Origin: Planctomicrobium piriforme
GTDB taxonomy: Bacteria > Planctomycetota > Planctomycetia > Planctomycetales > Planctomycetaceae
Direction: 5' to 3'
DNA length: 32,000 nt
Assembly (NCBI RefSeq): GCF_900113665.1
Contig: NZ_FOQD01000003.1
Coordinates: 258,659-290,658 of the forward strand
Positions 5,936 through 30,198 of this stretch are shown in pieces. The notes beneath the pieces were generated by a model, which saw nothing but the letters and a program-made list of their open reading frames with translations, was not told the origin of the DNA and made no database searches. Made by a program: the position numbers and the translations under genes. Within the stretch, counting starts at the first letter, position 1. The number at the start of each line of letters is the position of its first letter.

Positions 5936-7981
5936 ATGTCGACCCCCCTTGTTGATCCTGCTCTGCCGGGCACGCCTCGTTATCGAGTCACCCGCTGGAT
6001 GCTCCTGGTCTTGACGCTGCTCACCACGATTGGCGGCGTTGGATTGTTCGTCAACGTGCTGTCTGTCAACGGCATGAACCCGGCGGAATACGTCATTCTG
6101 CCGCTGTTCACGGTCCTGTTTGCCTGGATCGCATTCTCGTTCTGGACAGCTGCCTGGGGCCTGATGCTGGTTCTCAGCGGCAAGAACCCCGTCGGTGAAT
6201 CCACAGCCTCGAATCGTGATGAAAACGCACCGCTGTCGCCGACCGCGGTGCTGATGCCGATCTATAACGAGTCTCCGACCGACGTCTTTGCAGGCGTACA
6301 GGCGATGTTGCAGTCGCTGGTTGCCACGGGCAAGCCGAACGCCTTCGATATGTTCGTCCTCAGTGACACCACTGATCCGGACATCTGGCTGGAAGAAGAA
6401 CGGGCCTGGGCCCGGCTGGTCGCCGAACACGGTTCACACCCCCGGGTGTTCTACCGTCGCCGTCCGCGAAACGTCAGCCGCAAGGCCGGTAACATTGCCG
6501 ACTTCTGCTGCCGTTGGGGATCGCAGTACGAATACATGATCGTCCTTGACGCCGACAGCGTCATGGAAGGGGCGACTCTGGTGGAAATGGTCCGCCGGAT
6601 GGACGCCGACCCGCAACTGGGCATTCTGCAGGTGCCGCCGACTCCGGTGAATCGCCTGTCGCTCTTTGCCCGTCTCCAGCAATTTGCTTCGCGGCTCTAC
6701 AGCGACATCCTGATTCAGGGTTTCTGCAGTTGGGCCAACTTCGACAGCAACTACTGGGGCCACAACGCCATTATTCGCGTGGAACCGTTTACCCGGCACT
6801 GCGGCCTGCCCATCCTGCCGGGCAAGGCTCCGCTCGGCGGCGAGATTCTGAGTCACGACTTCGTGGAAGCAGCCCTCATGGCCCGCGCAGGCTACAAAGT
6901 CTCGCTCGCTCATGACCTCGGCGGCAGCTACGAAGAATGCCCGACCACGCTGCTCGATTTCGCCAAGCGGGATCAGCGGTGGTGTCAGGGAAATATGCAG
7001 CATATCCGTCTCGTCTTCAGCGAAGGCTTCCGGCCCATCAGCCGATTGCACCTCGCGATGGGGGCAATGGCTTACCTGTCTGCTCCGCTGTGGCTGGCGT
7101 TCATGACGCTCAGTGCAGTCGCGATGTGGATGGACGGCTCGCAAGTTCCGGAAAGTCCGTCGTGGATTGCCGGCGCCTCGGTCGTGTTCGGCATCACAAT
7201 GGCCCTGCTGCTGCTGCCCAAGATGTTCAGCCTGATCGCCCTCGCCAAACAGCCGCAGCGGCTGCGTGAGTTCGGCGGCTGGGACAACGTCGTCGGCAGC
7301 GCCCTGCTGGAAACGCTGATCTCGATTCTCGTCTCTCCGATCATGATGTTCTTCCACACCCGCTTTGTGGTCACCACATTGCTCGGCCAGAAAGTGGTCT
7401 GGAACGCCCAGAACCGCGGTGAAGGAGATATCACGTTCGGCGAAGCACTGCTGGTCTATGGCCCGCACATGCTGGCCGGCGTCCTGACAACGCTGTTCAT
7501 CGGTTACTTCTCTCCGTACCTGCTCATCTGGTTCCTGCCGGTGGTGTTCGGGCTGATCTTCTCAGTTCCGCTCGCACTCACACTCGGCAGCGTCCGGCTG
7601 GGTCAACGGTTGGCGGAGCAGGGGTTGCTGCTGATTCCGGAAGAGATCACCACGCCGCAGATTCTGCACCTGCAGAAACAGGCGTTGGCAGCACGGTTGC
7701 GTTCACGCGATCACTACGACCGCGACAAGCTGTTCGACACCGTGTTGATCGACCCGTCGTTTCATGCCCTGCATCGCAACATCCTTCAGGCGACCGAGTC
7801 GCATGTCCCGGCTCCTCGTGAAGACATCAAAGCGATTCAGGAACTGATTCAACGGGAAGGCCCGTCGGCCGTGCCGCGCGATGCCCGTCGGATGATCCTG
7901 TCCGATGCGGACGCGCTGAAGAAGATTCACGTCCAGGTCCGGAGCCAGATGCGCCTGACCCGATCGGCCCTGAGCAGCTAA
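5936..7981 (+). CDS. opgH: Glucans biosynthesis glucosyltransferase H (GT2, multi-pass membrane)
   Basis: N- and C-terminal TM segments flank a GT2 core with VLMPIYNE, LSDT, VLDADS and the QRWCQG motif. Confidence 0.93.
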   Translation: MSTPLVDPALPGTPRYRVTRWMLLVLTLLTTIGGVGLFVNVLSVNGMNPAEYVILPLFTVLFAWIAFSFWTAAWGLMLVLSGKNPVGESTASNRDENAPLSPTAVLMPIYNESPTDVFAGVQAMLQSLVATGKPNAFDMFVLSDTTDPDIWLEEERAWARLVAEHGSHPRVFYRRRPRNVSRKAGNIADFCCRWGSQYEYMIVLDADSVMEGATLVEMVRRMDADPQLGILQVPPTPVNRLSLFARLQQFASRLYSDILIQGFCSWANFDSNYWGHNAIIRVEPFTRHCGLPILPGKAPLGGEILSHDFVEAALMARAGYKVSLAHDLGGSYEECPTTLLDFAKRDQRWCQGNMQHIRLVFSEGFRPISRLHLAMGAMAYLSAPLWLAFMTLSAVAMWMDGSQVPESPSWIAGASVVFGITMALLLLPKMFSLIALAKQPQRLREFGGWDNVVGSALLETLISILVSPIMMFFHTRFVVTTLLGQKVVWNAQNRGEGDITFGEALLVYGPHMLAGVLTTLFIGYFSPYLLIWFLPVVFGLIFSVPLALTLGSVRLGQRLAEQGLLLIPEEITTPQILHLQKQALAARLRSRDHYDRDKLFDTVLIDPSFHALHRNILQATESHVPAPREDIKAIQELIQREGPSAVPRDARRMILSDADALKKIHVQVRSQMRLTRSALSS

Positions 7982-8008
7982 ACGTGCTGCGATTGATTGA
8001 GAACCTCA

Positions 8009-8044
8009 CAGGGGGCGAGACGAATGTCTCGCCCCCTGTTTTTG
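8009..8044 (+). terminator. Rho-independent terminator after opgH
   Basis: 13-bp perfect stem (cagggggcgagac 8009-8021 with gtctcgccccctg 8026-8038), loop gaat, then a T-run tttttg at 8039-8044. It lies 28 nt after the opgH stop. Confidence 0.85.
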
Positions 8045-8058
8045 TATTTCTGTATTTC

Positions 8059-8090
8059 CCTGATCCCTCGCCCCTATCCCCTGATCCCTC
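8059..8090. repeat. 11-nt direct duplication inside a diverged REP-like element
   Basis: cctgatccctc occurs at 8059-8069 and 8080-8090. The surrounding tccctcgcccct...caggagagagg resembles the 44-nt elements at 17689 and 25772. Confidence 0.4.
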
Positions 8091-8191
8091 ACAGGAGAGA
8101 GGCATGGGAACTGCACTACCGTGTTTTGGGCGAAGGATGGTTGTCCGAGGGGCGGGCAGCGTCTGAGCCTGTGATTCACGGGAGACGAAAC

Positions 8192-8683
8192 ATGTTGACT
8201 GCATTGCTGCGCGTTGTGAGTGCCTGCACCGTTCTTTCTACGGCCTGCCTGATGGCTCATGCCGATGACGCAACGGCGAAGTGCGATCCGGCCGACTTCG
8301 ACGGCACCTACAAGATTGTCTCCGGCGAAATGGACGGGAAAGCAATCCCGCCAGAACGGCTGCACCATGTGAAAGCGGTCTTCACAGCCGGTTCCATCGT
8401 CACGTTCGACAAGGACGAGAATCAGGTCTATGCCGCGACGTTCACCCTCGGGCCCGCGAAAAACGGCTGCCACATCAACATGACCAGTCAGAAGCCGGCT
8501 AAGGAGGGAAGCTCTGCCTCGGGACTCATTAAAAAAGACGGCGACACCGTCTCGCTGATCTACGCCCTGCCGTCAGGCGAATTGCCGACGAGCTTCAAAA
8601 CCCACGCGAAACAACACCTGTTCATCATGAAAAAAGTGACCGACGCGATCCCTCAGAACGATCAGGAACTGAAGAAGCCGTGA
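8192..8683 (+). CDS. Secreted lipocalin-like protein, TIGR03067-type planctomycete domain
   Basis: Signal peptide MLTALLRVVSACTVLSTACLMAHA. The domain pattern FDGTYKIVSGEMDGKAIPPE ... GDTVSLIYALPSGELPTSFKT matches my recollection of the TIGR03067 family. The longer ORF-track form from 7997 would read through the opgH terminator. Confidence 0.75.
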   Translation: MLTALLRVVSACTVLSTACLMAHADDATAKCDPADFDGTYKIVSGEMDGKAIPPERLHHVKAVFTAGSIVTFDKDENQVYAATFTLGPAKNGCHINMTSQKPAKEGSSASGLIKKDGDTVSLIYALPSGELPTSFKTHAKQHLFIMKKVTDAIPQNDQELKKP

Positions 8684-9329
8684 GCGTTCCTGGGAGCGAT
8701 ATCCATTTCTCGGTCGATCCGAAATACCCAAAAGTAGCTGCTACGGCTGTCTGCCAGACGGCGAACATCAACACGACGGGCAATTGTCCGCCTGCAAGAT
8801 CGCGAAGGACAATTGCGAACATCAGATAGCTCATTGTGCTGATGGCCCCGACCAACGACACGACGACCACGCATAACCTCTTTCGGCGACACGGAACCAG
8901 GGTAACGACCGCTATTGCCAGCAGGAATCCGCCAAAAGCTCCGCTGATGCCAAGCCAAAGGTCCCCGCGCATCGATGTTGTAAAAGGCATCAACAGCGCT
9001 GGAAACCACATCGTGAATCCAACGCTGAGAACATACGAGAGTGCTGAACTCAAAACGAGAAGTACCATATTCCTGTTGGACAAGGGCAGGAGAGTGCGTC
9101 CAACTGCGTATGAGAGAGCGATCCCCAAAGTGATTCCTGGTAGGCCCAGTACGAGGGGATAAATGACGGAGCAAGAAAACGCGGTGATCCCACCGGAGAC
9201 CAGGCCGGCTTTTGCAAATTCAATGACAATTCTGGCCCGCTCAGGCGGCTCTCTCTTGAGGTCACGCTGCTCCAGTATCGCCTGGGCAAATTCGACCACT
9301 TCAGGAGAAGCGTCGTTCATCTCAATCAT
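8625..9329 (-). CDS. Hypothetical multi-pass membrane protein, last gene of the terminase operon
   Basis: A soluble N-terminus of about 40 aa precedes 5-6 hydrophobic segments (ITAFSCSVIYPLVLGLPGITLGIAL, MVLLVLSSALSYVLSVGFTMWF, LWLGISGAFGGFLLAIAVVTLV, LCVVVVSLVGAISTMSYLMFAIVL, LPVVLMFAVWQTAVAATFGYF). Same strand as TerL, 102 nt downstream. Its 3' end overlaps the convergent gene by 59 nt. Confidence 0.6.
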   Translation of the reverse strand: MIEMNDASPEVVEFAQAILEQRDLKREPPERARIVIEFAKAGLVSGGITAFSCSVIYPLVLGLPGITLGIALSYAVGRTLLPLSNRNMVLLVLSSALSYVLSVGFTMWFPALLMPFTTSMRGDLWLGISGAFGGFLLAIAVVTLVPCRRKRLCVVVVSLVGAISTMSYLMFAIVLRDLAGGQLPVVLMFAVWQTAVAATFGYFGSTEKWISLPGTLTASSVPDRSEGSRRSLFS

Positions 9330-9431
9330 CTTGTTTATTGGATCGCAGTCTCTCGCTGCGAGAACCGTTTTTCATCGCCAGCTTTCACTGCTTAACAGAG
9401 TATTGCACTGGATATTATCACTGTTTCACCG

Positions 9432-10928
9432 TCACCACCCGAATCCTCCCCCATTCTCCGGCGGCGTCACCAGTAAAAAATCTCCTGTCGACTCCTCGTT
9501 GAGCGTCAGACAGGCGACTCCCAGGGTGAAGGCGCGATCGTCGTGGTGCTGGCCGTCGCTGACGTGATCGATCCGCAGTTTCCCGGCGGAGGATTGCCGC
9601 AGGATCAGCGATGCCAGTTCCGTTTCCAGATCGTCGCGGTGGACGCCGGGAACGCTGCCGCAGCCGGGATACCATTGCACGCGCTGGTGCAGAATGAGCT
9701 GCCGCAGGGCGACCGCCAGCCGATGGTTCCCTTCGCCTGCGGAGAACCGGAAACGCTGCACCGGATATTTGTTTTCCAGCCGCTGGATCGTGCCGATTAA
9801 CTGGTATTCGTCCACGACGAAGCGCACCTGTTCAAAACGCGAGGCGATGTCTTCGATCCAGTCTTCCACCCAGGCAACGCGCGTGGGCGTGTTCTGATCC
9901 GGCTTCACGACGTCCATGCGGTCGACGACGATCAATTCCCCTTCGCGGTGACAGACGCAGCCGACGGTGAAGTCGTGCTTTTCGGCGTAGTCGATGGCGG
10001 CCACGTAGGCGCGGCCCGGCTGGCCTTCGAGTTGATACCGGCGGCGCTCGTTCCGGCAGGCTTCGACTTCCGTCAGAGTGAGAAAGTTGCCTTCCGCATG
10101 CTGCCAGCGATTGAGCCAGAGCCGTTCATAGACGGGTTGCGGCAGCAGAGCCCGTTGTTCGGCGAGCCAATCCTCTGTGATCCACGGCGCCTGCGGGCCG
10201 TCGAGCGAAGAGAAGTACCACCGAGAATCGTGGCGGGCGTGTTCGCGGATCTCCCATTGCCAGCCGCGGCCGACGCCCGCGTTGGTCAGAATCGTCAGCA
10301 CGCAGCGCGGCTTCTTCGCGGCGGAGGACAGCAGCGAGTACCACATCTCCGGCCGCGGCCAATGGCTGACTTCGTCGCAGATGACAAAGTCCGGGAGCGC
10401 GCCATAGGAGCTTTTCACATCGGACGAAATCACGTCGAGACGGCTGCCGGTCTGCTTGTTCTTCACCAGGTGTTCGAGAAACTGCAGCGGTTCCAGCAGC
10501 GGCTGATTGACGCTGGCCAGCCGTCGCAGGGAGTCGAGCAGAAACAACCCCTGATCGCGATCGGCCGCCGCCGCCAGTCCATTCACAGGTTGCCGCGCGG
10601 CGAGCAGAATCCAGGCGATCTGCACGGCCATGTCGGAGGTTTTCGAATGCCCGCGAGGGCGTTCGATATAGGCTCGTCGCAGACATTCCTGATCAGGACG
10701 AGTCGTGCGGCCCGCCAGTTCGAGCCAGGCCGTATCGAGCGCCGCCAGATCCTGCCGCTGCCAGGGCTGCAGTACATCTCTCAGCCGTTGTCGGGCATCA
10801 CCCGGCAGCCAGAGCTGGCGGCGAAACAACTCAGGACTTCGTCTCGCATCGCGATTGAGAATCTCCCGGTGCAGGCTGAGGCAATAATTCTGCCGCCAGC
10901 TTCTGGAATTGGGCAAGGAGTTCATCAT
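9432..10928 (-). CDS. Phage terminase large subunit-like protein (Terminase_1 / COG4626 type)
   Basis: LQPWQRQDL entry motif, deviant Walker A ERPRGHSKTS, Walker B FVICDEVSHW, and nuclease-domain acidic motifs AAIDYAEKHDFTV and HHDDRAFTLGVA. The ATG at 10928 overlaps TerS by 98 nt. An alternative TTG at 10829 starts 1 nt after the TerS stop. Confidence 0.85.
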   Translation of the reverse strand: MMNSLPNSRSWRQNYCLSLHREILNRDARRSPELFRRQLWLPGDARQRLRDVLQPWQRQDLAALDTAWLELAGRTTRPDQECLRRAYIERPRGHSKTSDMAVQIAWILLAARQPVNGLAAAADRDQGLFLLDSLRRLASVNQPLLEPLQFLEHLVKNKQTGSRLDVISSDVKSSYGALPDFVICDEVSHWPRPEMWYSLLSSAAKKPRCVLTILTNAGVGRGWQWEIREHARHDSRWYFSSLDGPQAPWITEDWLAEQRALLPQPVYERLWLNRWQHAEGNFLTLTEVEACRNERRRYQLEGQPGRAYVAAIDYAEKHDFTVGCVCHREGELIVVDRMDVVKPDQNTPTRVAWVEDWIEDIASRFEQVRFVVDEYQLIGTIQRLENKYPVQRFRFSAGEGNHRLAVALRQLILHQRVQWYPGCGSVPGVHRDDLETELASLILRQSSAGKLRIDHVSDGQHHDDRAFTLGVACLTLNEESTGDFLLVTPPENGGGFGW

Positions 10929-11328
10929 CCGTGAGTTCCTCAGGCGTCAGCGCGTCGGCGTCGGCAGTTTCAAACCAGTCCGGCGGGGGTCGGTTTTTCA
11001 AATAGAACGTCTGGGCTGAAACGTTCCCTTTCATCGCCGCGCAGTACAGCGCGGCGGCGACATTCTGGCTCAGCAGTTCGCGAACGCGGTCGACCAGATT
11101 GCGGAAGCGTTCATCCGTCTCCATCACCGCGGCGATTGCCGCCAGCGAGATGCCGACTTTCTTGCAGGCCTCGGCAGGCGGCAGTCCGCACGCCAAGAAT
11201 TGCAGATACTCTTCCTGCTGAGCCGCTGTCAGTTGTAAGCCTGTCGCGTCGTCCGCCAGCAGCTTCGCAACCTTATGCTTTGAGAGCAGAGCGTCACCCG
11301 TCTTACCTTCCACCTGACGCGGGTCCAT
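10831..11328 (-). CDS. Phage terminase small subunit-like HTH protein
   Basis: HTH segment LPPAEACKKVGISLAAIAAV and the TerS-typical FYLKNRPPPDW near the C-terminus. The start is placed at ATG 11328 (MDPRQ). The upstream extension to 11430/11622 has lower third-position GC (hand count 20/34) than the overlapping GNAT frame (26/31). Confidence 0.7.
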   Translation of the reverse strand: MDPRQVEGKTGDALLSKHKVAKLLADDATGLQLTAAQQEEYLQFLACGLPPAEACKKVGISLAAIAAVMETDERFRNLVDRVRELLSQNVAAALYCAAMKGNVSAQTFYLKNRPPPDWFETADADALTPEELTDDELLAQFQKLAAELLPQPAPGDSQSRCETKS

Positions 11329-11923
11329 GTCTTGCGGCGTGCGCCCGGTTGTCGAAGATGTAGTAGACCGGGTTCGCGAAGCGGCTTTTGTCGTACGTTT
11401 CGCGGGTGAGGAGGGCTGCTTTTTGGCCATGTTTCTGACGACGGTAGAGCAGGGAATGGGATGCTCGCGAGCGTTCGACCGTGCGTGAGACGCCGACGCG
11501 GCGGAAGCCGGCCCGTTCGAAGACGGGGTTAACGTGTCCCATCTGGGTGAGGGTTTCGATCCAGGGATACCCGGTGAGTTCGCAGCAGCGGCGGATGAAT
11601 CGATACCCGATGCCGGCCCCACGATAGGTGGGATGGAGCACCACCCGCGACAGTGTTAGCAACTGACGGTTCAATGTGCGCAGTAATGTGCGATCCCATT
11701 TTCCGCCACGGCCAAAGTAACGGTTCCGCTGCGCTAGCGATTTGGGCGGGGCAATGAACAGGCAAATGCCAACCGGTTCATCTCCCTGCCAGAGGAGAAA
11801 CAGCTGCCGAATCAGCCCGATGCGGTGGCTGCGATAATGCCACCGAGCGAAGTACGTCCAGTCGGACTTGGTCGCGGAGGAGATCCAGAACTCGTCGGCG
11901 AGCCGCAGCGTTTTTTTTTGAGA
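11303..11923 (-). CDS. GNAT acetyltransferase domain, reachable only by a -1 shift from the upstream ATPase frame
   Basis: The frame is open from 11923 to the TAA at 11303. There is no ATG/GTG/TTG start until TTG at 11674. It encodes WHYRSHRIGLIRQLFLLWQGDEPVGICLF ... RVVLHPTYRGAGIGYRFI ... VFERAGFRRVG, which includes a GNAT acetyl-CoA motif A. Third-position GC is 37/42 in the first 42 codons after the A9 tract. Confidence 0.8.
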   Translation of the reverse strand, partial: SQKKTLRLADEFWISSATKSDWTYFARWHYRSHRIGLIRQLFLLWQGDEPVGICLFIAPPKSLAQRNRYFGRGGKWDRTLLRTLNRQLLTLSRVVLHPTYRGAGIGYRFIRRCCELTGYPWIETLTQMGHVNPVFERAGFRRVGVSRTVERSRASHSLLYRRQKHGQKAALLTRETYDKSRFANPVYYIFDNRAHAARHGPASGGR

Positions 11924-12615
11924 TCACCGTCAGAGGTCGTCACTTCGATCTCGCCATCCAGCCGACAGCGGATATGAACATCAGCAGCGAGGTCATCCAC
12001 GATATCTTCGTGTGTCGTCACCAGCAGAAAGCCGATTCCAGTCCGGTTGGCGAGCCGGGAGAGATTCGACGCAATCACTCTGGCGAGTCGGCGATCAAGC
12101 GTCGCGGTGAATTCATCCGCCACAATCCAGTCGGCCTGTTGCGACACAGCGAGTGCCAGCAGAAAACGGTAACGCTGTCCATCTGAAAGCTCTGAGGGAG
12201 TTCGCAACATTAGCTGCGCTTCACCCAGTCCGCACGCGGCGAGCAAGGCCAGACCGTCGGCCACCGCCCCCGGCAACAGGTCGACCAGGCAACGGTCGTC
12301 CAGCGTCAAATCGGCAAGCGAAATAACGCGAGCACCCGCTGCCTTCAACTGCTCCGCCGCTGACCTCAACAAAGAAGACTTGCCAGACCCGCTTTCACCG
12401 GTGAACAACACGACGCTGCCAGGCTGCACGCTGAACTGCAAATCACGGGCGATGATATGTTCCCCCTGTTCGAAATCGATGCCGAACTGATCCATCACGA
12501 CCGACGCACGCGTTGAGTTCACTCTCGGGCGGAAGTGATGAGAGACGGACAAGCTGAGAGTTTGGGCGGGCGATGGCATGAATGGGAGGGGGCTCGACGG
12601 GGGGGAATTTGTCAT
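11812..12615 (-). CDS. ABC-type ATPase (zero-frame product; a fusion to GNAT is likely)
   Basis: Walker A GESGSGKSSLL, signature-like LSDGQRYR, Walker B WIVADEFTATLD, H-loop VTTHE. After KKK (the A9 tract) the zero-frame tail RCGSPTSSGSPPRPSPTGRTSLGG is low-complexity, with third-position GC of only 16/32. Confidence 0.85.
   Translation of the reverse strand: MTNSPPSSPLPFMPSPAQTLSLSVSHHFRPRVNSTRASVVMDQFGIDFEQGEHIIARDLQFSVQPGSVVLFTGESGSGKSSLLRSAAEQLKAAGARVISLADLTLDDRCLVDLLPGAVADGLALLAACGLGEAQLMLRTPSELSDGQRYRFLLALAVSQQADWIVADEFTATLDRRLARVIASNLSRLANRTGIGFLLVTTHEDIVDDLAADVHIRCRLDGEIEVTTSDGDLKKKRCGSPTSSGSPPRPSPTGRTSLGGIIAATASG
11911..11919 (-). other. A9 homopolymer (T9 on the plus strand) at the ATPase/GNAT junction; candidate -1 slip site
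   Basis: The minus strand reads ctc aaa aaa aaa cgc. Re-reading the last A gives acg ctg cgg..., which is the GNAT frame. A_AAA_AAA fits the X_XXY_YYZ slippery pattern, and A9 runs are known transcriptional slippage sites. Confidence 0.7.
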
Positions 12616-12695
12616 TTGTCATTTGTCATTTGTCATTTGTCATTTGTCATTGGCTATTGGCTATTGGCTATTGGCTGACTGCTGATAGCTGACCG
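12608..12695. repeat. Compound heptanucleotide tandem array spanning the ATPase start codon
   Basis: Plus strand: (TTTGTCA)x6 at 12608-12649, (TTGGCTA)x3 at 12650-12670, then GCTGACT/GCTGATA/GCTGACC at 12674-12694, abutting the ParB-like stop at 12696. Minus strand: (TAGCCAA)3(TGACAAA)6, with the ATPase ATG (12615) formed by the last unit. A C7 run (12599-12605) follows in codons 4-6. Confidence 0.95.
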
Positions 12696-13280
12696 CTACG
12701 ATGCAGCCTGATTGCGGATGTGGAGGCGGAGGTCGGGGTAGCGCGTCAAGAGGGAATCGAGTTCTTGCTGTACCTCGGGCCAGACATCGGGGGGGACTTC
12801 GAGGGTCACCTGCAGGAGTCCGTTGGTCTCGTCTGCGTTCGCTGCATCCTCTTCCTCGTTCTGATCAACAGGAGCGAGCAGCAGGTCGTGCAGTTGTTGG
12901 GCATCGAAGCCTGTCAGCGTCGCGTCGAACTCCGGAAGTTCCTGCAGTTCTGCCACCAGATCAATCAGGCGGTCGGGATCCCAATCGCTGCCCACTTCTG
13001 AATTGTTCAACGTGATGTTGAGCGCCTGTTCCCGCTCCAGCGGCAGGTCGACCACCACGCAGTCCACCTCCGTCTCCCCGTGATGTTTGAGGATTGCCAG
13101 CCGCTGGTGACCTGAAACGACATGGCCGGTTCGCTCGTTCCAGACAATTGGCTGCACCAGTTGAAATTCCGCCAGCGACCGTTCCAGTTTCTTCCAGGCG
13201 GCATCGCCCGGCTTCAGGGAAATCCGCGGGTTATACGGCGCGGGATTCAGAGACGTGACGGGCAATGTTTTCAGCAGCAT
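12696..13280 (-). CDS. ParB-like nuclease (ParB/Srx N-terminal) domain protein
   Basis: LNPAPYNPR, IVWNERTGHVVSGHQRLAIL, VDCVVVDLPLEREQALNITLN and the WD...L pattern, as seen in phage ParB-like domains that are often fused to DNA methylases. No methylase domain is present here; the C-terminal half is acidic. Confidence 0.8.
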   Translation of the reverse strand: MLLKTLPVTSLNPAPYNPRISLKPGDAAWKKLERSLAEFQLVQPIVWNERTGHVVSGHQRLAILKHHGETEVDCVVVDLPLEREQALNITLNNSEVGSDWDPDRLIDLVAELQELPEFDATLTGFDAQQLHDLLLAPVDQNEEEDAANADETNGLLQVTLEVPPDVWPEVQQELDSLLTRYPDLRLHIRNQAAS

Positions 13281-13315
13281 GCAGATGTCCGGTTGAGTCA
13301 GGAGGCAGTGAACAT

Positions 13316-13765
13316 TTACGGCGTTTCAAGCTGTGAGCTTTCATCGGAGAACAGCAAGGATTCAGGTTGGTCAGACACGGTGACTGCCGGGTCGTTCCAG
13401 CTCAGTTCTTCATCCAGATCGAGAAACTCAGGCGAGGCCTGAAATTCGGCTCGCAGCTCCCCTTTGATCCGGGCCAGGCAACGCGTGACGTGGCCTTTGG
13501 GATGCCCGAACACGGCGCCGATCCGGTCGAGCGGCCAGCCTGCGTTTTCCCGTAAGGCGAGCATCGCGAGATATTTCCATTTGCGCATATCTTCGCCGGC
13601 GAAATGGTCATGAATGATCTGCCAGAACTGATCCGCCCCGGAACGGGGGAGAACGATTTTGACGCCATTGGGTCGCGATACGGACATCAACTCTCCTTCG
13701 AGGGTGAAGTGCTGCGGCGACAGGTGCTTCAACCAGTTCCGCAACTGTTGCGCAGCAGGCGACAA
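13316..13765 (-). CDS. Small DNA-binding protein with a sigma-70 region-4-like HTH
   Basis: LALRENAGWPLDRIGAVFGHPKGHVTRCLARIKGELR resembles region 4.2. The track start at 13765 is a TTG; the alternative ATG is at 13687. A 6-bp inverted repeat (ccggag-aa-ctccgg, 13770-13783) sits just upstream of the TTG. Confidence 0.6.
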   Translation of the reverse strand: MSPAAQQLRNWLKHLSPQHFTLEGELMSVSRPNGVKIVLPRSGADQFWQIIHDHFAGEDMRKWKYLAMLALRENAGWPLDRIGAVFGHPKGHVTRCLARIKGELRAEFQASPEFLDLDEELSWNDPAVTVSDQPESLLFSDESSQLETP

Positions 13766-13926
13766 ACAGCCGGAGAACTCCGGCTGGCATCGCTGCGCTG
13801 AGATGGTTGATCGGAACAGGCGGTTCTTCCCAGTTCCGATCTGGGATCAGGAAGGCGCAGCCTGACTCTGGTAAACGAGCGCTGGGAAGAGGAGTTGCCA
13901 GGATTTTTGTCACTGCAGATCCGAAC

Positions 13927-13954
13927 GCTGACGGCTGATTGCTGACGTCTGCTG
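13927..13954 (+). repeat. GCTGANN heptad array
   Basis: GCTGACG/GCTGATT/GCTGACG/TCTGCTG. TGA at 13929, 13936 and 13943, which covers all three plus-strand frames. Confidence 0.8.
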
Positions 13955-14019
13955 CCTGTGGCAGACTGTTCTCATCCCCAATGGGTCGCAACAATGAGCG
14001 GGACTGGAAACTGAGATTT

Positions 14020-14039
14020 GTTTCGGATTTCGTGCTTCG
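14020..14039 (+). repeat. 20-nt repeat, left copy (gtttcggatttcgtgcttcg)
   Basis: Exact second copy at 15422-15441. The unit tttcggattt recurs at 14042-14051, and a small hairpin (cggatt-tccg-aatccg) follows. Confidence 0.9.
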
Positions 14040-14066
14040 TATTTCGGATTTCCGAATCCGCCTGCC

Positions 14067-15450: not shown

Positions 15451-16305
15451 TTATTTGGATCGTTGAGCCACGAGCTTCTGCTGGTACTCCTGGAACGTCA
15501 TCCAGCGAATGTCATTGGAGCGCAGTTGCTTTTCCCAATGGCTGATGTGCCGGCGGTCGACTGACTGGAATTCCCAGGTGAACTGGTGTTCGGCGCGGTA
15601 CTGCATCTGCTTGCCGCGCGGCGCGGAGCCGTTCTGCAGATTCAAGGTCTCGAACTGCAGGTCGACCTGCGTCGGCAACAGCTCTTCGCGTCGGAGCGCC
15701 TCATTCAGTTTCAGGCGGACGTCGGGAAAGTTTGATGACGGGTGCAGCACGAAGTTCAATCGCGCGGCCCAGTCGGCATAGTCGAGATACTGCCGGACAA
15801 ACTGCGGCGAATCGAGCTTCGTGGTCTTCACGGTATAAGTCAGCGGCTCGGCCTTCATTTCGAAGACGTTACGATTCTCTGACAGGTTCGACTGGAACTC
15901 GGGGTTCAACTGAAAGTTCATCAGCATTCCGAGCCGCCGGGAGTTGTCGTCGGACTGCTGCAGCAATTTCTCGACCACCTGTACAGATTCGGTTCTGGTC
16001 GATTCGAGCGAATGATTGATCTCGGCAAAGGGGACTTCCGTCGCGGAAAAATTCTTGCCGAGAATCACGAAGCGATGATGCACCGGTTCGAAGATCAACA
16101 CTTCACCGGCCTCTTCCATGTAGTCGTACACCTTGCCCGCGTGAAACAGGGTGAGGCTGTGCGAGACCGCGCGTGATGGGGCTGGTGCGCGAGAAAGTTC
16201 GCTAACGGTGGTATAGACCCGCATGTCCTGAGCGGACACTGGTGAGGAACTGACGGCCCATCCCAACAGCAGCGCGACAGCCAGGCAGAGAGTGCGGTTG
16301 AGCAC
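15451..16305 (-). CDS. Secreted hypothetical protein
   Basis: Signal peptide MLNRTLCLAVALLLGWAVSSSPVSAQD. The 284-aa ORF has coherent composition but no motif I recognise. Confidence 0.65.
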   Translation of the reverse strand: MLNRTLCLAVALLLGWAVSSSPVSAQDMRVYTTVSELSRAPAPSRAVSHSLTLFHAGKVYDYMEEAGEVLIFEPVHHRFVILGKNFSATEVPFAEINHSLESTRTESVQVVEKLLQQSDDNSRRLGMLMNFQLNPEFQSNLSENRNVFEMKAEPLTYTVKTTKLDSPQFVRQYLDYADWAARLNFVLHPSSNFPDVRLKLNEALRREELLPTQVDLQFETLNLQNGSAPRGKQMQYRAEHQFTWEFQSVDRRHISHWEKQLRSNDIRWMTFQEYQQKLVAQRSK

Positions 16306-19281: not shown

Positions 19282-19303
19282 GCGATCAAGTCTTTAGTTG
19301 TCA

Positions 19304-19338
19304 GTAGTCAGTGATCAGGTGTCAGTAGAACGCCGCGA
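19304..19338. repeat. Heptad array between gltB and gltD
   Basis: Plus strand: TTAGTTG/TCAGTAG/TCAGTGA/TCAGGTG/TCAGTAG. The minus strand carries TGA x4 and one TAA at 7-nt spacing. The plus strand has TAG/TAG/TGA/TAG, covering all three frames. Confidence 0.85.
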
Positions 19339-30120: not shown

Positions 30121-30127
30121 CAGGGAA

Positions 30128-30198
30128 GCGGTCAGCAATCAGCGGTCAGCTTTCAGCAATTCACTGTCTGGCTCTGGACTCTCGACACTGGACCCTCG
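30128..30198. repeat. Heptad array in two sub-blocks between convergent genes
   Basis: GCGGTCA/GCAATCA/GCGGTCA/GCTTTCA (the complement reads TGA at 7-nt spacing), then CTGTCTG/GCTCTGG/ACTCTCG/ACACTGG/ACCCTCG. 30174-30193 (ctggactctcgacactggac) is an exact reverse-complement match to 2170-2189 inside dnaE. Confidence 0.9.

Follow-up and report, generated by a model that had tools for sequence, protein, structure and literature searches.

We analyzed a 32,000-nucleotide stretch of the Planctomicrobium piriforme genome (the window; all positions without a locus number refer to it) and found on its minus strand, at 9432-13690, a module of five genes: a small helix-turn-helix (HTH) protein, a ParB-like protein, an ABC-type ATPase joined to a GNAT-like acetyltransferase, and the small (TerS) and large (TerL) subunits of a terminase (Table 1). 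The module belongs to an element of the Planctomycetaceae that is recognizable by homology, gene order, vertical inheritance, selection, fragmentation and a conserved recoding site. An earlier note, made from the sequence of the window, had described a six-gene minus-strand operon at 8625-13765; the open reading frames (ORFs) listed there are indeed co-directional, but the unit comprises five genes, and the membrane protein gene following TerL lies outside it. The ParB-like, ABC ATPase, GNAT, TerS and TerL identities that the note had proposed agreed with Pfam and PHROGs; NCBIfam yielded no specific family. The HTH gene, which had been extended to 13765, was shortened to the MSVSRPNG start at ~13690 according to an alignment of 31 species. 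As the note had stated, portal, capsid and tail homologues and tRNA were absent from the window. The flanks consisted of host genes (DnaE, MdoG/OpgG, an OpgH-like GT2 glycosyltransferase, a TIGR03067-domain protein, a paaK-like AMP-binding ligase and an HDOD protein), and the GC content of the module equaled that of the flanks. The housekeeping setting described earlier was thus retained, except that the gene called lipocalin-like encodes a TIGR03067 domain.

Table 1. Features of the terminase module and its surroundings in the Planctomicrobium piriforme window.
Feature	Position	Strand	Evidence or remark
Small HTH protein encoded at the start of the module, ~124 aa	13316..13690	-	start MSVSRPNG conserved in 31 species
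ParB/Srx N-terminal-domain protein, 194 aa	12696..13280	-	phrog_620 E 5e-36; Pfam ParB_N E 7e-4
ABC-type ATPase, zero-frame product ~267 aa	11812..12615	-	Pfam ABC_tran E 4e-12; phrog_293 E 6e-33
A9 slippery run (CTC AAA AAA AAA CGC)	11911..11919	-	-1 frame change joining ABC ATPase to GNAT
GNAT-like acetyltransferase domain, -1 frame, ~200 aa	11303..11919	-	Pfam Acetyltransf_7 E 2e-4; phrog_886 E 1e-8
TerS, ~165 aa from the ATG at 11328	10831..11328	-	phrog_309 E 8e-7; phrog_4044
TerL, ATPase and nuclease domains	9432..10928	-	Pfam TerL_ATPase PF03354; phrog_9 E 7e-28
Perfect heptamer tandem repeats in the ParB-ABC spacer	12607..12676	+	(ATTTGTC)x6.4, then (ATTGGCT)x4
Membrane protein, 234 aa, predicted multi-pass, downstream of TerL	8625-9329	-	no counterpart in related loci
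Neighboring protein with a planctomycete-specific TIGR03067 domain	7997-8683	+	E 1e-12, above cut-off; no Pfam match

TerL combined an N-terminal ASCE (additional strand, catalytic glutamate) ATPase domain carrying Walker A and B motifs with a C-terminal RNase H-like nuclease domain carrying acidic residues, which is the organization of a large terminase. Its score for Pfam TerL_ATPase was 24.3 bits against a cut-off of 23.7, and the NCBI start is a TTG at ~10829, giving 465 aa. In particular, the PRGHSKT Walker A-like loop, the CDE Walker B motif, D313 and the HHDD(R) acidic nuclease residues were invariant in 16 homologues. An AlphaFold (AF2) model built on 16 homologues (pLDDT 80) had HK97 TerL (6z6d) as its best Foldseek match in the PDB, with an E-value of 2e-21 over both the ATPase and the nuclease domains; the template modeling (TM) score against isolated nuclease domains was 0.75. 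These results were consistent with the earlier view that TerL is not decayed. Among catalogued phages, TerL found distant matches only, with at most 26% identity over 38% of the protein; these were cluster E mycobacteriophages without ParB/ABC genes. The ParB/ABC/GNAT set was also absent from the distant relatives in IMG/VR (TerL identity of 33-44%).

The position of TerS was conserved in 72 loci. An in-frame ATG further upstream, at ~11430, would make TerS overlap the 3' end of the GNAT region. We observed that, between 11303 and 11430, the TerS-frame sequence 'SRTRSTTSSTT' mirrors the invariant C-terminal 'PVYYIFDNR' of GNAT; since the extension mirrors the GNAT C-terminus in this way, TerS probably starts at the ATG at 11328. 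At the other end of the module, the ParB-like protein was of the phage 'ParB-like nuclease/partition' type and was found at the same position in 52 related loci. The C-terminal three-helix region of the HTH protein resembled sigma-70 region 4 and DnaA domain IV; the matches were weak (Pfam Sigma70_r4; profile comparisons with DnaA domain IV, E 0.002, and with sigma factors, E 0.06), and a single-sequence AF2 model had a pLDDT of 52, which was too poor for use. We regard the protein as a candidate regulator or DNA-recognition factor.

The frame of the ABC gene reads CTC AAA AAA AAA CGC and then continues for 32 out-of-frame codons to a stop; the conservation of this zero-frame tail only reflects that of the overlapping GNAT frame. 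GNAT itself is read on from the A9 run in the -1 frame, so that the conceptual fusion of ~437 aa has a COG2401-like architecture with GNAT as the C-terminal half. The domain carries the motif HPTYRGAGIG, its profile matched structure 3fb3 (E 2e-4), and 34 of its columns were invariant across 37 species. The A9 run with the -1 frame relation was present in 48 related species, with the codon phase AAA_AAA_AAA in 38 and A_AAA_AAA_AAN in 10. Additionally, three species had an A10 run, which results in an in-frame fusion, and a few had A8; two species had an in-frame ABC-GNAT fusion without any A run, and in at least one species (Maioricimonas, locus L052) the GNAT part appeared from the sequence to have a separate ATG. 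The linker directly upstream of the run varied from a few to more than 200 bases. Of the 90 A or T runs of at least 8 in 1.35 Mb of related loci, 63 were the ABC~GNAT A9 site, and AAA accounted for only 51% of the Lys codons. Because of this conservation in 48 species, the share of the site among long runs and the moderate use of AAA, we interpret the A9 run as a site of programmed recoding, and the gene is predicted to have two products, the ATPase by itself (~29 kDa) and a longer ATPase-acetyltransferase (~47 kDa).

With respect to the mechanism of recoding, the run length was kept irrespective of the codon phase and the run-length variants shifted the frame as expected, as is characteristic of transcriptional slippage. 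An A_AAA_AAA or A_AAA_AAG heptamer was present in both observed phases and would also permit ribosomal -1 frameshifting. RNA folding downstream and upstream of the run revealed no structure signal (z -1.4 to +1.6 on the downstream side). Since the length is kept regardless of phase and no downstream structure was detected, transcriptional slippage appears to be the more likely mechanism. We also observed GC-rich palindromes resembling repetitive extragenic palindromic (REP) elements, such as CCCCTCTCCCCCCGGGAGAGGGGCTGGGGGTGAGGG, inserted within the ORF in the linker just upstream of A9 in six loci (L045, L053, L056, L061, L064 and L083). These inserts lengthen the protein by up to ~70 residues, and in some loci a linker hairpin ends 8-10 nt before the run. 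No description of this recoding site was found in the literature searched, of which coverage was incomplete. The frame transitions of ABC transporters in Antonov et al. 2013 are cases of translational coupling only, and the ABC~GNAT family was not among the ABC clusters of that study (PMC3711429).

To describe the distribution of the module, TerL relatives were surveyed with one genome per species, and gene order was analyzed in the best 80 loci. A TerL relative was encoded by 181 species representatives; the best 80 loci, no two of them from the same species genome, all belonged to Planctomycetaceae or unclassified Planctomycetota and showed TerL identities of 52-76%. The order HTH, ParB, ABC, GNAT, TerS, TerL was kept and the ORFs were intact in most of these 80 loci; thus, the gene set co-occurs well beyond P. 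piriforme. In lineages without an adjacent portal, the pairwise ratio of nonsynonymous to synonymous substitution rates (dN/dS) was 0.003-0.15 over all six reading frames, including 0.003-0.1 for HTH, 0.07-0.12 for the ParB-like gene and 0.03-0.14 for TerL. These values are far below 1, and with the invariant catalytic residues of TerL they revealed neither relaxed selection nor loss of catalytic residues.

The paaK-like gene adjoined the module in the window and in five other genomes of the Planctomicrobium clade, in which the chromosomal position of the module was fixed as judged by synteny. Identities to the window copy were 65-73% for the paaK-like gene and 66-73% for TerL, and because flank and TerL are equally diverged, we conclude that the module has diverged together with its host rather than arriving by repeated infection. 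Vertical inheritance with purifying selection across the clade, as expected of a gene transfer agent (GTA), was therefore evident from the 181 species, the dN/dS values and the conserved flanks. Neither the window nor any of the 80 loci had an integrase or replication gene adjoining the module. A phage satellite resembling phage-inducible chromosomal islands (PICI-like) was also considered and was rejected on the grounds that no integrase or replication genes lie beside the module and that its chromosomal position is fixed. In a neighbor-joining (NJ) tree of TerL, the portal-adjacent state was scattered among deep branches, and a derived group of ~35 taxa without an adjacent portal included the window, Planctomicrobium, Thalassoglobus and Maioricimonas.

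The structural genes that are missing from the window were found in relatives. Clustering of the flanking ORFs revealed a portal directly after TerL in 15 loci, and this portal was of the lambda family (PF05136, E 6e-34; phrog_21). In four loci (L031, L042, L043 and L078), about a dozen further co-directional genes followed the portal, including a PF25209 capsid, head-closure and neck proteins and a tape-measure-like protein. In Rubinisphaera italica (L108, 1915-19436), the whole element formed one co-directional block of ~17.5 kb between host genes, with ThiF upstream and two glycosyltransferases (GT2 and GT1) downstream. The block began with the small HTH protein, ParB, ABC, the GNAT part, TerS, TerL and the portal, and continued with a protease/scaffold-like protein of ~300 aa, a cement/decoration-like protein of 160 aa, the capsid and about ten neck and tail genes, among them a 252-aa tape-measure-like protein and proteins of 564 and 381 aa. 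The called genes of L108 included no integrase, replication or repressor gene, many small ORFs being unannotated. Likewise, no integrase was found among the called genes at the borders of L108, L111 and L114, no flanking tRNA was found at any copy of the element, and no att-like flanking repeat was found at the complete element. Owing to the absence of integrase, replication, repressor, tRNA and att-like sequences, L108 has the architecture of a GTA rather than that of a prophage; complete blocks were bounded directly by host genes and contained no integration, replication or lysogeny module. The capsids were ~398-405 aa long and 70-86% identical across genera, a uniformity that, judged from these sequences, is far above expectation for free phages.

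Two side observations concern these blocks. In four genera, the tail genes were followed, without change of order, by a 376-381-aa protein with a weak MptE-like match, GT2 and GT1 (L108, 18291-21165, and equivalents in L109, L111 and L114), and these genes may belong to the element, for example in glycosylation, rather than to the neighboring host genes. In L063, a metagenome-assembled genome (MAG), the portal beside TerL was split into two ORFs of 303 and 245 aa (11688-13206), which is either a real pseudogene, reflecting local decay, or an assembly error.

In other genomes, the same genes were separated in various ways. In one MAG (L039 and L109), ~20 kb separated the packaging module from the portal-to-tail block, which ran in the opposite direction, and in HKST-UBA56 the module and portal were on one contig (L049) and the scaffold-decoration-capsid-tail genes on another (L110). 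The capsid-to-tail block stood alone in Symmachiella (L111) and Polystyrenella (L114), the latter bordered by Peptidase_M48/DinB and UvrC, and in L041 the capsid block was inverted and lay upstream of the module. The tail block was followed by GT2 and GT1 in four genera and preceded by the Peptidase_M48/DinB pair in two. Eight loci lacked HTH-ParB next to ABC..TerL, and TerL was alone in two (L037 and L040). The earlier note had taken a continuation into portal, capsid and tail genes in relatives as a sign of simple prophage decay. Such a continuation was found, but decay does not follow from it, because the separated pieces remain intact.

The sister species Planctomicrobium sp. SH661 was particularly informative. 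Its orphan module and paaK-like flank, at 2.05-2.07 Mb, correspond to those of the window, and its capsid (P0279, 404 aa) is encoded at 0.43-0.45 Mb, 1.6 Mb from the packaging module. P0279 was 76% identical to the L041 capsid and 70% identical to the R. italica capsid. The SH661 head block (L112) consisted of a scaffold/protease-like protein, a decoration protein and the capsid between FtsH and a BatA operon, and a metagenomic contig (L113) contained the same three-gene head block, with a 405-aa capsid, in another host context. Since the SH661 capsid block sits 1.6 Mb away, the Planctomicrobium clade retains head genes far from the packaging module. A capsid profile search had no Planctomicrobium among its best 120 matches, a query with the L041 capsid did match Planctomicrobium, and a P. 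piriforme capsid was absent from the matches listed in either search. We also noted a 112-aa membrane protein of the Phage_holin_4_2 family in L112 (5335-5673), 2.4 kb upstream of the head block with FtsH in between.

The membrane protein downstream of TerL, which had been proposed as a partner of the terminase, found a counterpart in 0 of the 80 related loci. It was nearly an orphan: a search of 1.84 billion proteins gave 9 representative clusters at E < 0.001, of which the next best showed 30% identity. The GC content of its stretch was 0.53, below the surroundings. Sister genomes carried other genes after TerL, namely a metallophosphatase in SH661 and an opposite-strand methyltransferase in Thalassoglobus. 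The gene therefore looks like a recent, species-specific insertion.

The heptamer repeats of the ParB-ABC spacer include the annotated ATG of the ABC gene, the true start of which may be a Met at ~12579. Further heptamer repeats were found in the window at 2170-2275, 14021-14052, 19296-19328 and 30127-30150. Period-7 repeats with species-specific units recurred in the ParB-ABC spacer of many related loci (2.3 per kb versus 0.1 elsewhere), and no other tandem-repeat period was as common as 7 in 1.35 Mb of Planctomycetaceae loci, where such repeats also occurred in host intergenic DNA. The repeats resemble the short tandemly repeated repetitive (STRR) sequences of cyanobacteria. The earlier suggestion of a contingency role for simple-sequence tracts in the ATPase gene was rejected; the heptamers lie in the spacer and in other intergenic regions, and period-7 repeats are common in the intergenic DNA of these genomes, so that they look like a genome-wide feature. 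In L108, we observed a G-rich heptamer array (GGTTAGA-like) after the stop codon in almost every intergenic gap of the element, with the reverse complement (TCTAACC-like) preceding the next gene (gaps at 7765-7895, 11200-11345 and 15755-15895, among others). These arrays fold into long hairpins (z = -5.3, -4.1 and -2.7), which the spacer of the window does not (z = -0.1), and the hairpins could act as processing, stability or attenuation signals within the operon.

The region between the HTH gene and the divergent paaK-like gene (13691-14066) was otherwise unalignable between species, but a block upstream of the HTH gene, TCTTCCCA..TTTACCAGAnTCAnGCTGCGC, was common to the window, SH661 and SH668, and a GCGCAAC motif was found in this region in all six genomes of the Planctomicrobium clade. 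Both are candidate promoter or regulator sites for the module; the sequences there diverged too much in the alignment to define a motif with certainty.

Taken together, we consider it probable, though well short of certain, that 9432-13690 is the packaging module of a fragmented, domesticated, GTA-like element, the dispersed genes of which form a host-controlled regulon making DNA-filled particles. Such a dispersed GTA-like module was among the options of the earlier note, and it was supported by the SH661 capsid block 1.6 Mb away and by other genera in which the element is whole or variously split. The ancestor would have been one co-directional block of ~17.5 kb in the order HTH, ParB-like, ABC~GNAT, TerS, TerL, lambda-type portal, protease/scaffold-like protein, decoration protein, HK97-fold capsid, neck proteins, a short protein resembling a tape measure and proteins of the distal tail, and devoid of integration, replication and lysogeny genes. 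In many lineages, this block would then have been cut into pieces at different chromosomal sites, all under purifying selection, and the Planctomicrobium lineage would have been left with the module alone beside the paaK-like gene and with distant head genes. Beyond this, we infer that the dispersed genes are co-expressed and host-controlled, possibly via the HTH protein, and that TerS and TerL load DNA into capsids through the portal. By analogy with phages carrying the same pair, the ParB-like and ABC/ABC-GNAT proteins may serve as accessory factors in the initiation of packaging or in DNA processing, with slippage on A9 providing both the short ATPase and the long ATPase-acetyltransferase. 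The outcome would be GTA-like particles.

Several observations weigh against this interpretation. No lysis genes were identified in any copy, and neither portal nor tail genes lay beside the three-gene head blocks of SH661 and L113. Within the loci analyzed, no portal or tail gene was located in the Planctomicrobium-type clade, where a complete particle is thus a supposition, and head, portal and tail genes of P. piriforme itself are presumed from the sister species. The grouping of TerL relies on the simple NJ method, with no support values for its branches, and the phages that carry ParB and ABC-GNAT provide no established packaging function for the pair. Finally, the literature searched contained no report of particles, packaged DNA or gene transfer in these bacteria.

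Part of this evidence would also suit an exapted module that works without particles, in chromosomal DNA processing or in anti-phage interference by cutting or sequestering invading DNA, with the capsid block kept for unrelated reasons. The ~35 related taxa have no portal or tail gene near the module, the pieces separate even further where HTH-ParB is missing beside ABC..TerL (8 loci) or TerL stands alone (L037 and L040), and the ABC ATPase weakly matches defense ATPases (mad3, E 9e-20). However, PADLOC revealed no defense-system signature: its matches were limited to the ParB N-domain in a model of a ParB-methyltransferase and to generic ABC/AAA ATPases (mad3, mad8, PtuA and others), and TerS, TerL, HTH, GNAT and the membrane protein had none. 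Complete head-tail blocks of other genera contain the five module genes with equal conservation, and the Planctomicrobium clade has kept the capsid and the two other head proteins at 70-76% identity. Moreover, TerS is intact and TerL is intact in both its ATPase and nuclease domains, as true packaging would need. We therefore consider an exapted module unlikely, and the anti-phage defense option of the earlier note, with generic PADLOC matches and co-inheritance with head and tail genes, was not upheld.

Particles could also be made for a purpose other than transfer, as a PBSX-like defective-phage 'killer' or a tail-less DNA-filled capsid, the tail genes having been lost in the Planctomicrobium clade. 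The head blocks of SH661 and L113, with three genes and no tail genes beside them, and the very short tape-measure-like protein of the complete block (252 aa) are compatible with this. At the sequence level such a particle does not separate from a GTA-like one, and tail genes may sit at another locus, the element being split at many junctions; we give this alternative a similarly low probability. Far less probable is a decaying prophage remnant or a set of still-mobile temperate phages or satellites common in Planctomycetaceae. The continuation into portal, capsid and tail genes in relatives, the listing of L087 and L088 as proviruses in IMG/VR and the split portal of L063 speak for it. In opposition, every module gene is intact and shows a dN/dS of 0.003-0.15, the module occupies one chromosomal position in different species, and its divergence matches that of the flank. 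The called border genes of L108, L111 and L114 include no integrase, flanking tRNA and att-like repeats are absent, GC equals that of the flanks, the best 80 loci each come from a different species genome, and the one apparent frameshift is a conserved recoding site. The prophage remnant listed in the earlier note thus describes the origin of the element and not its present state, as the dN/dS values and the conserved synteny contradict it.

If the GTA-like interpretation is correct, the element would be a new, family-wide GTA lineage and a possible route of gene exchange in a phylum in which horizontal transfer is poorly known. To our knowledge, GTAs are known from a handful of independent domestications, mostly in Alphaproteobacteria. 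In the literature searched, of which coverage was incomplete, we found no GTA or conserved phage-derived element in Planctomycetes or Planctomycetaceae, and no account of ParB and ABC-acetyltransferase genes next to terminases was found there. More tentatively, with the chances slightly below even, the Planctomycetaceae may hold an independently domesticated GTA-like system, the first in the Planctomycetes-Verrucomicrobia-Chlamydiae (PVC) superphylum, in which scattered genes work together and a ParB-like protein and an A9-slippage ABC-GNAT protein are part of the packaging machinery. The gradation between an undivided block and four or more scattered pieces, with selection acting on all of them, would be a record of a virus genome dissolving into a host regulon. 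The ParB-like and ABC~GNAT genes, shared with phages upstream of terminases, would mark an accessory function in DNA packaging, and the A9 site offers a clean new case of programmed recoding. For annotation, a lone terminase should not be called a prophage remnant, and the frameshifted ABC/GNAT gene should not be annotated as a pseudogene.

We compared the recoding site and the element with known systems. In Thermus thermophilus dnaX, transcriptional slippage occurs on an A9 run, and one gene yields proteins of two lengths from an A run placed where two domains meet, as is predicted for ABC~GNAT. The dnaX gene of E. coli uses A AAA AAG for a -1 ribosomal frameshift, and an A_AAA_AAR heptamer is also available at the ABC~GNAT site; the transposases of insertion sequence (IS) elements likewise undergo programmed recoding on A runs. 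Unlike these cases, ABC~GNAT is a new gene family for A-run recoding, and no stimulatory structure was detected.

A tblastn search with the conceptual ABC-GNAT fusion identified 75 phage records. Stenotrophomonas phage BUCTxx99 has ParB, ParB/Srx, an ABC ATPase, a second ORF, two small ORFs, the terminase, the portal and the capsid in this order; Gordonia phage Sisko encodes a ParB-like nuclease (gene 1), a 406-aa ABC-like protein (gene 2), the terminase (gene 4) and the portal (gene 7); and in Escherichia phage Cyrano, ParB, a ParB-like nuclease and ABC are followed by an ORF described as an 'ABC-type ATPase fused to a predicted acetyltransferase' and the genome end. The ABC-GNAT protein, which had seemed foreign to packaging, thus recurs with ParB just upstream of phage terminases, and the pair appears, from these gene orders, to be a recurrent, unstudied terminase companion. 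The gene order in these phages was that of the module (ParB-like, ABC, GNAT, small protein/TerS, TerL, portal), with ABC/GNAT identities of 27-41%. In contrast to the host-borne module, these phages are complete (60-110 kb), and their ABC and GNAT are two coupled genes or one fused ORF without an A9 recoding site. HK97-like phages provided the closest structural comparison; the TerL model matched 6z6d over its full length, and relatives carry the lambda-family portal PF05136 and the Phage_capsid_4 PF25209. TerL was at most 26% identical to catalogued phage TerL, however, and the genes behave as host genes.

A comparable system is the GTA of Rhodobacter capsulatus (RcGTA; Rhodogtaviriformidae), which consists of a ~15-18 kb head-tail cluster beginning with TerS/TerL/portal, with an HK97-fold capsid and a short tape measure. 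It has no integrase or replication genes, is inherited vertically with purifying selection across its clade and has genes at more than one locus. The Planctomycetaceae element shares with RcGTA the compact co-directional head-tail cluster, the HK97-fold capsid and the short tape measure, and also the lack of integrase and replication genes, the vertical inheritance, the purifying selection and the multiple loci. In contrast, it is found in a different phylum and is of independent origin; its TerL is nearest to HK97-type terminases, and no relationship to RcGTA was seen. Whereas RcGTA is our reference for a working agent, the Planctomycetaceae element is known from its genes, and its particles and gene transfer are predicted from them. 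It adds the conserved HTH, ParB-like and ABC~GNAT genes ahead of TerS, and it is far more fragmented than RcGTA, as its packaging, portal, head and tail parts can all be separate.

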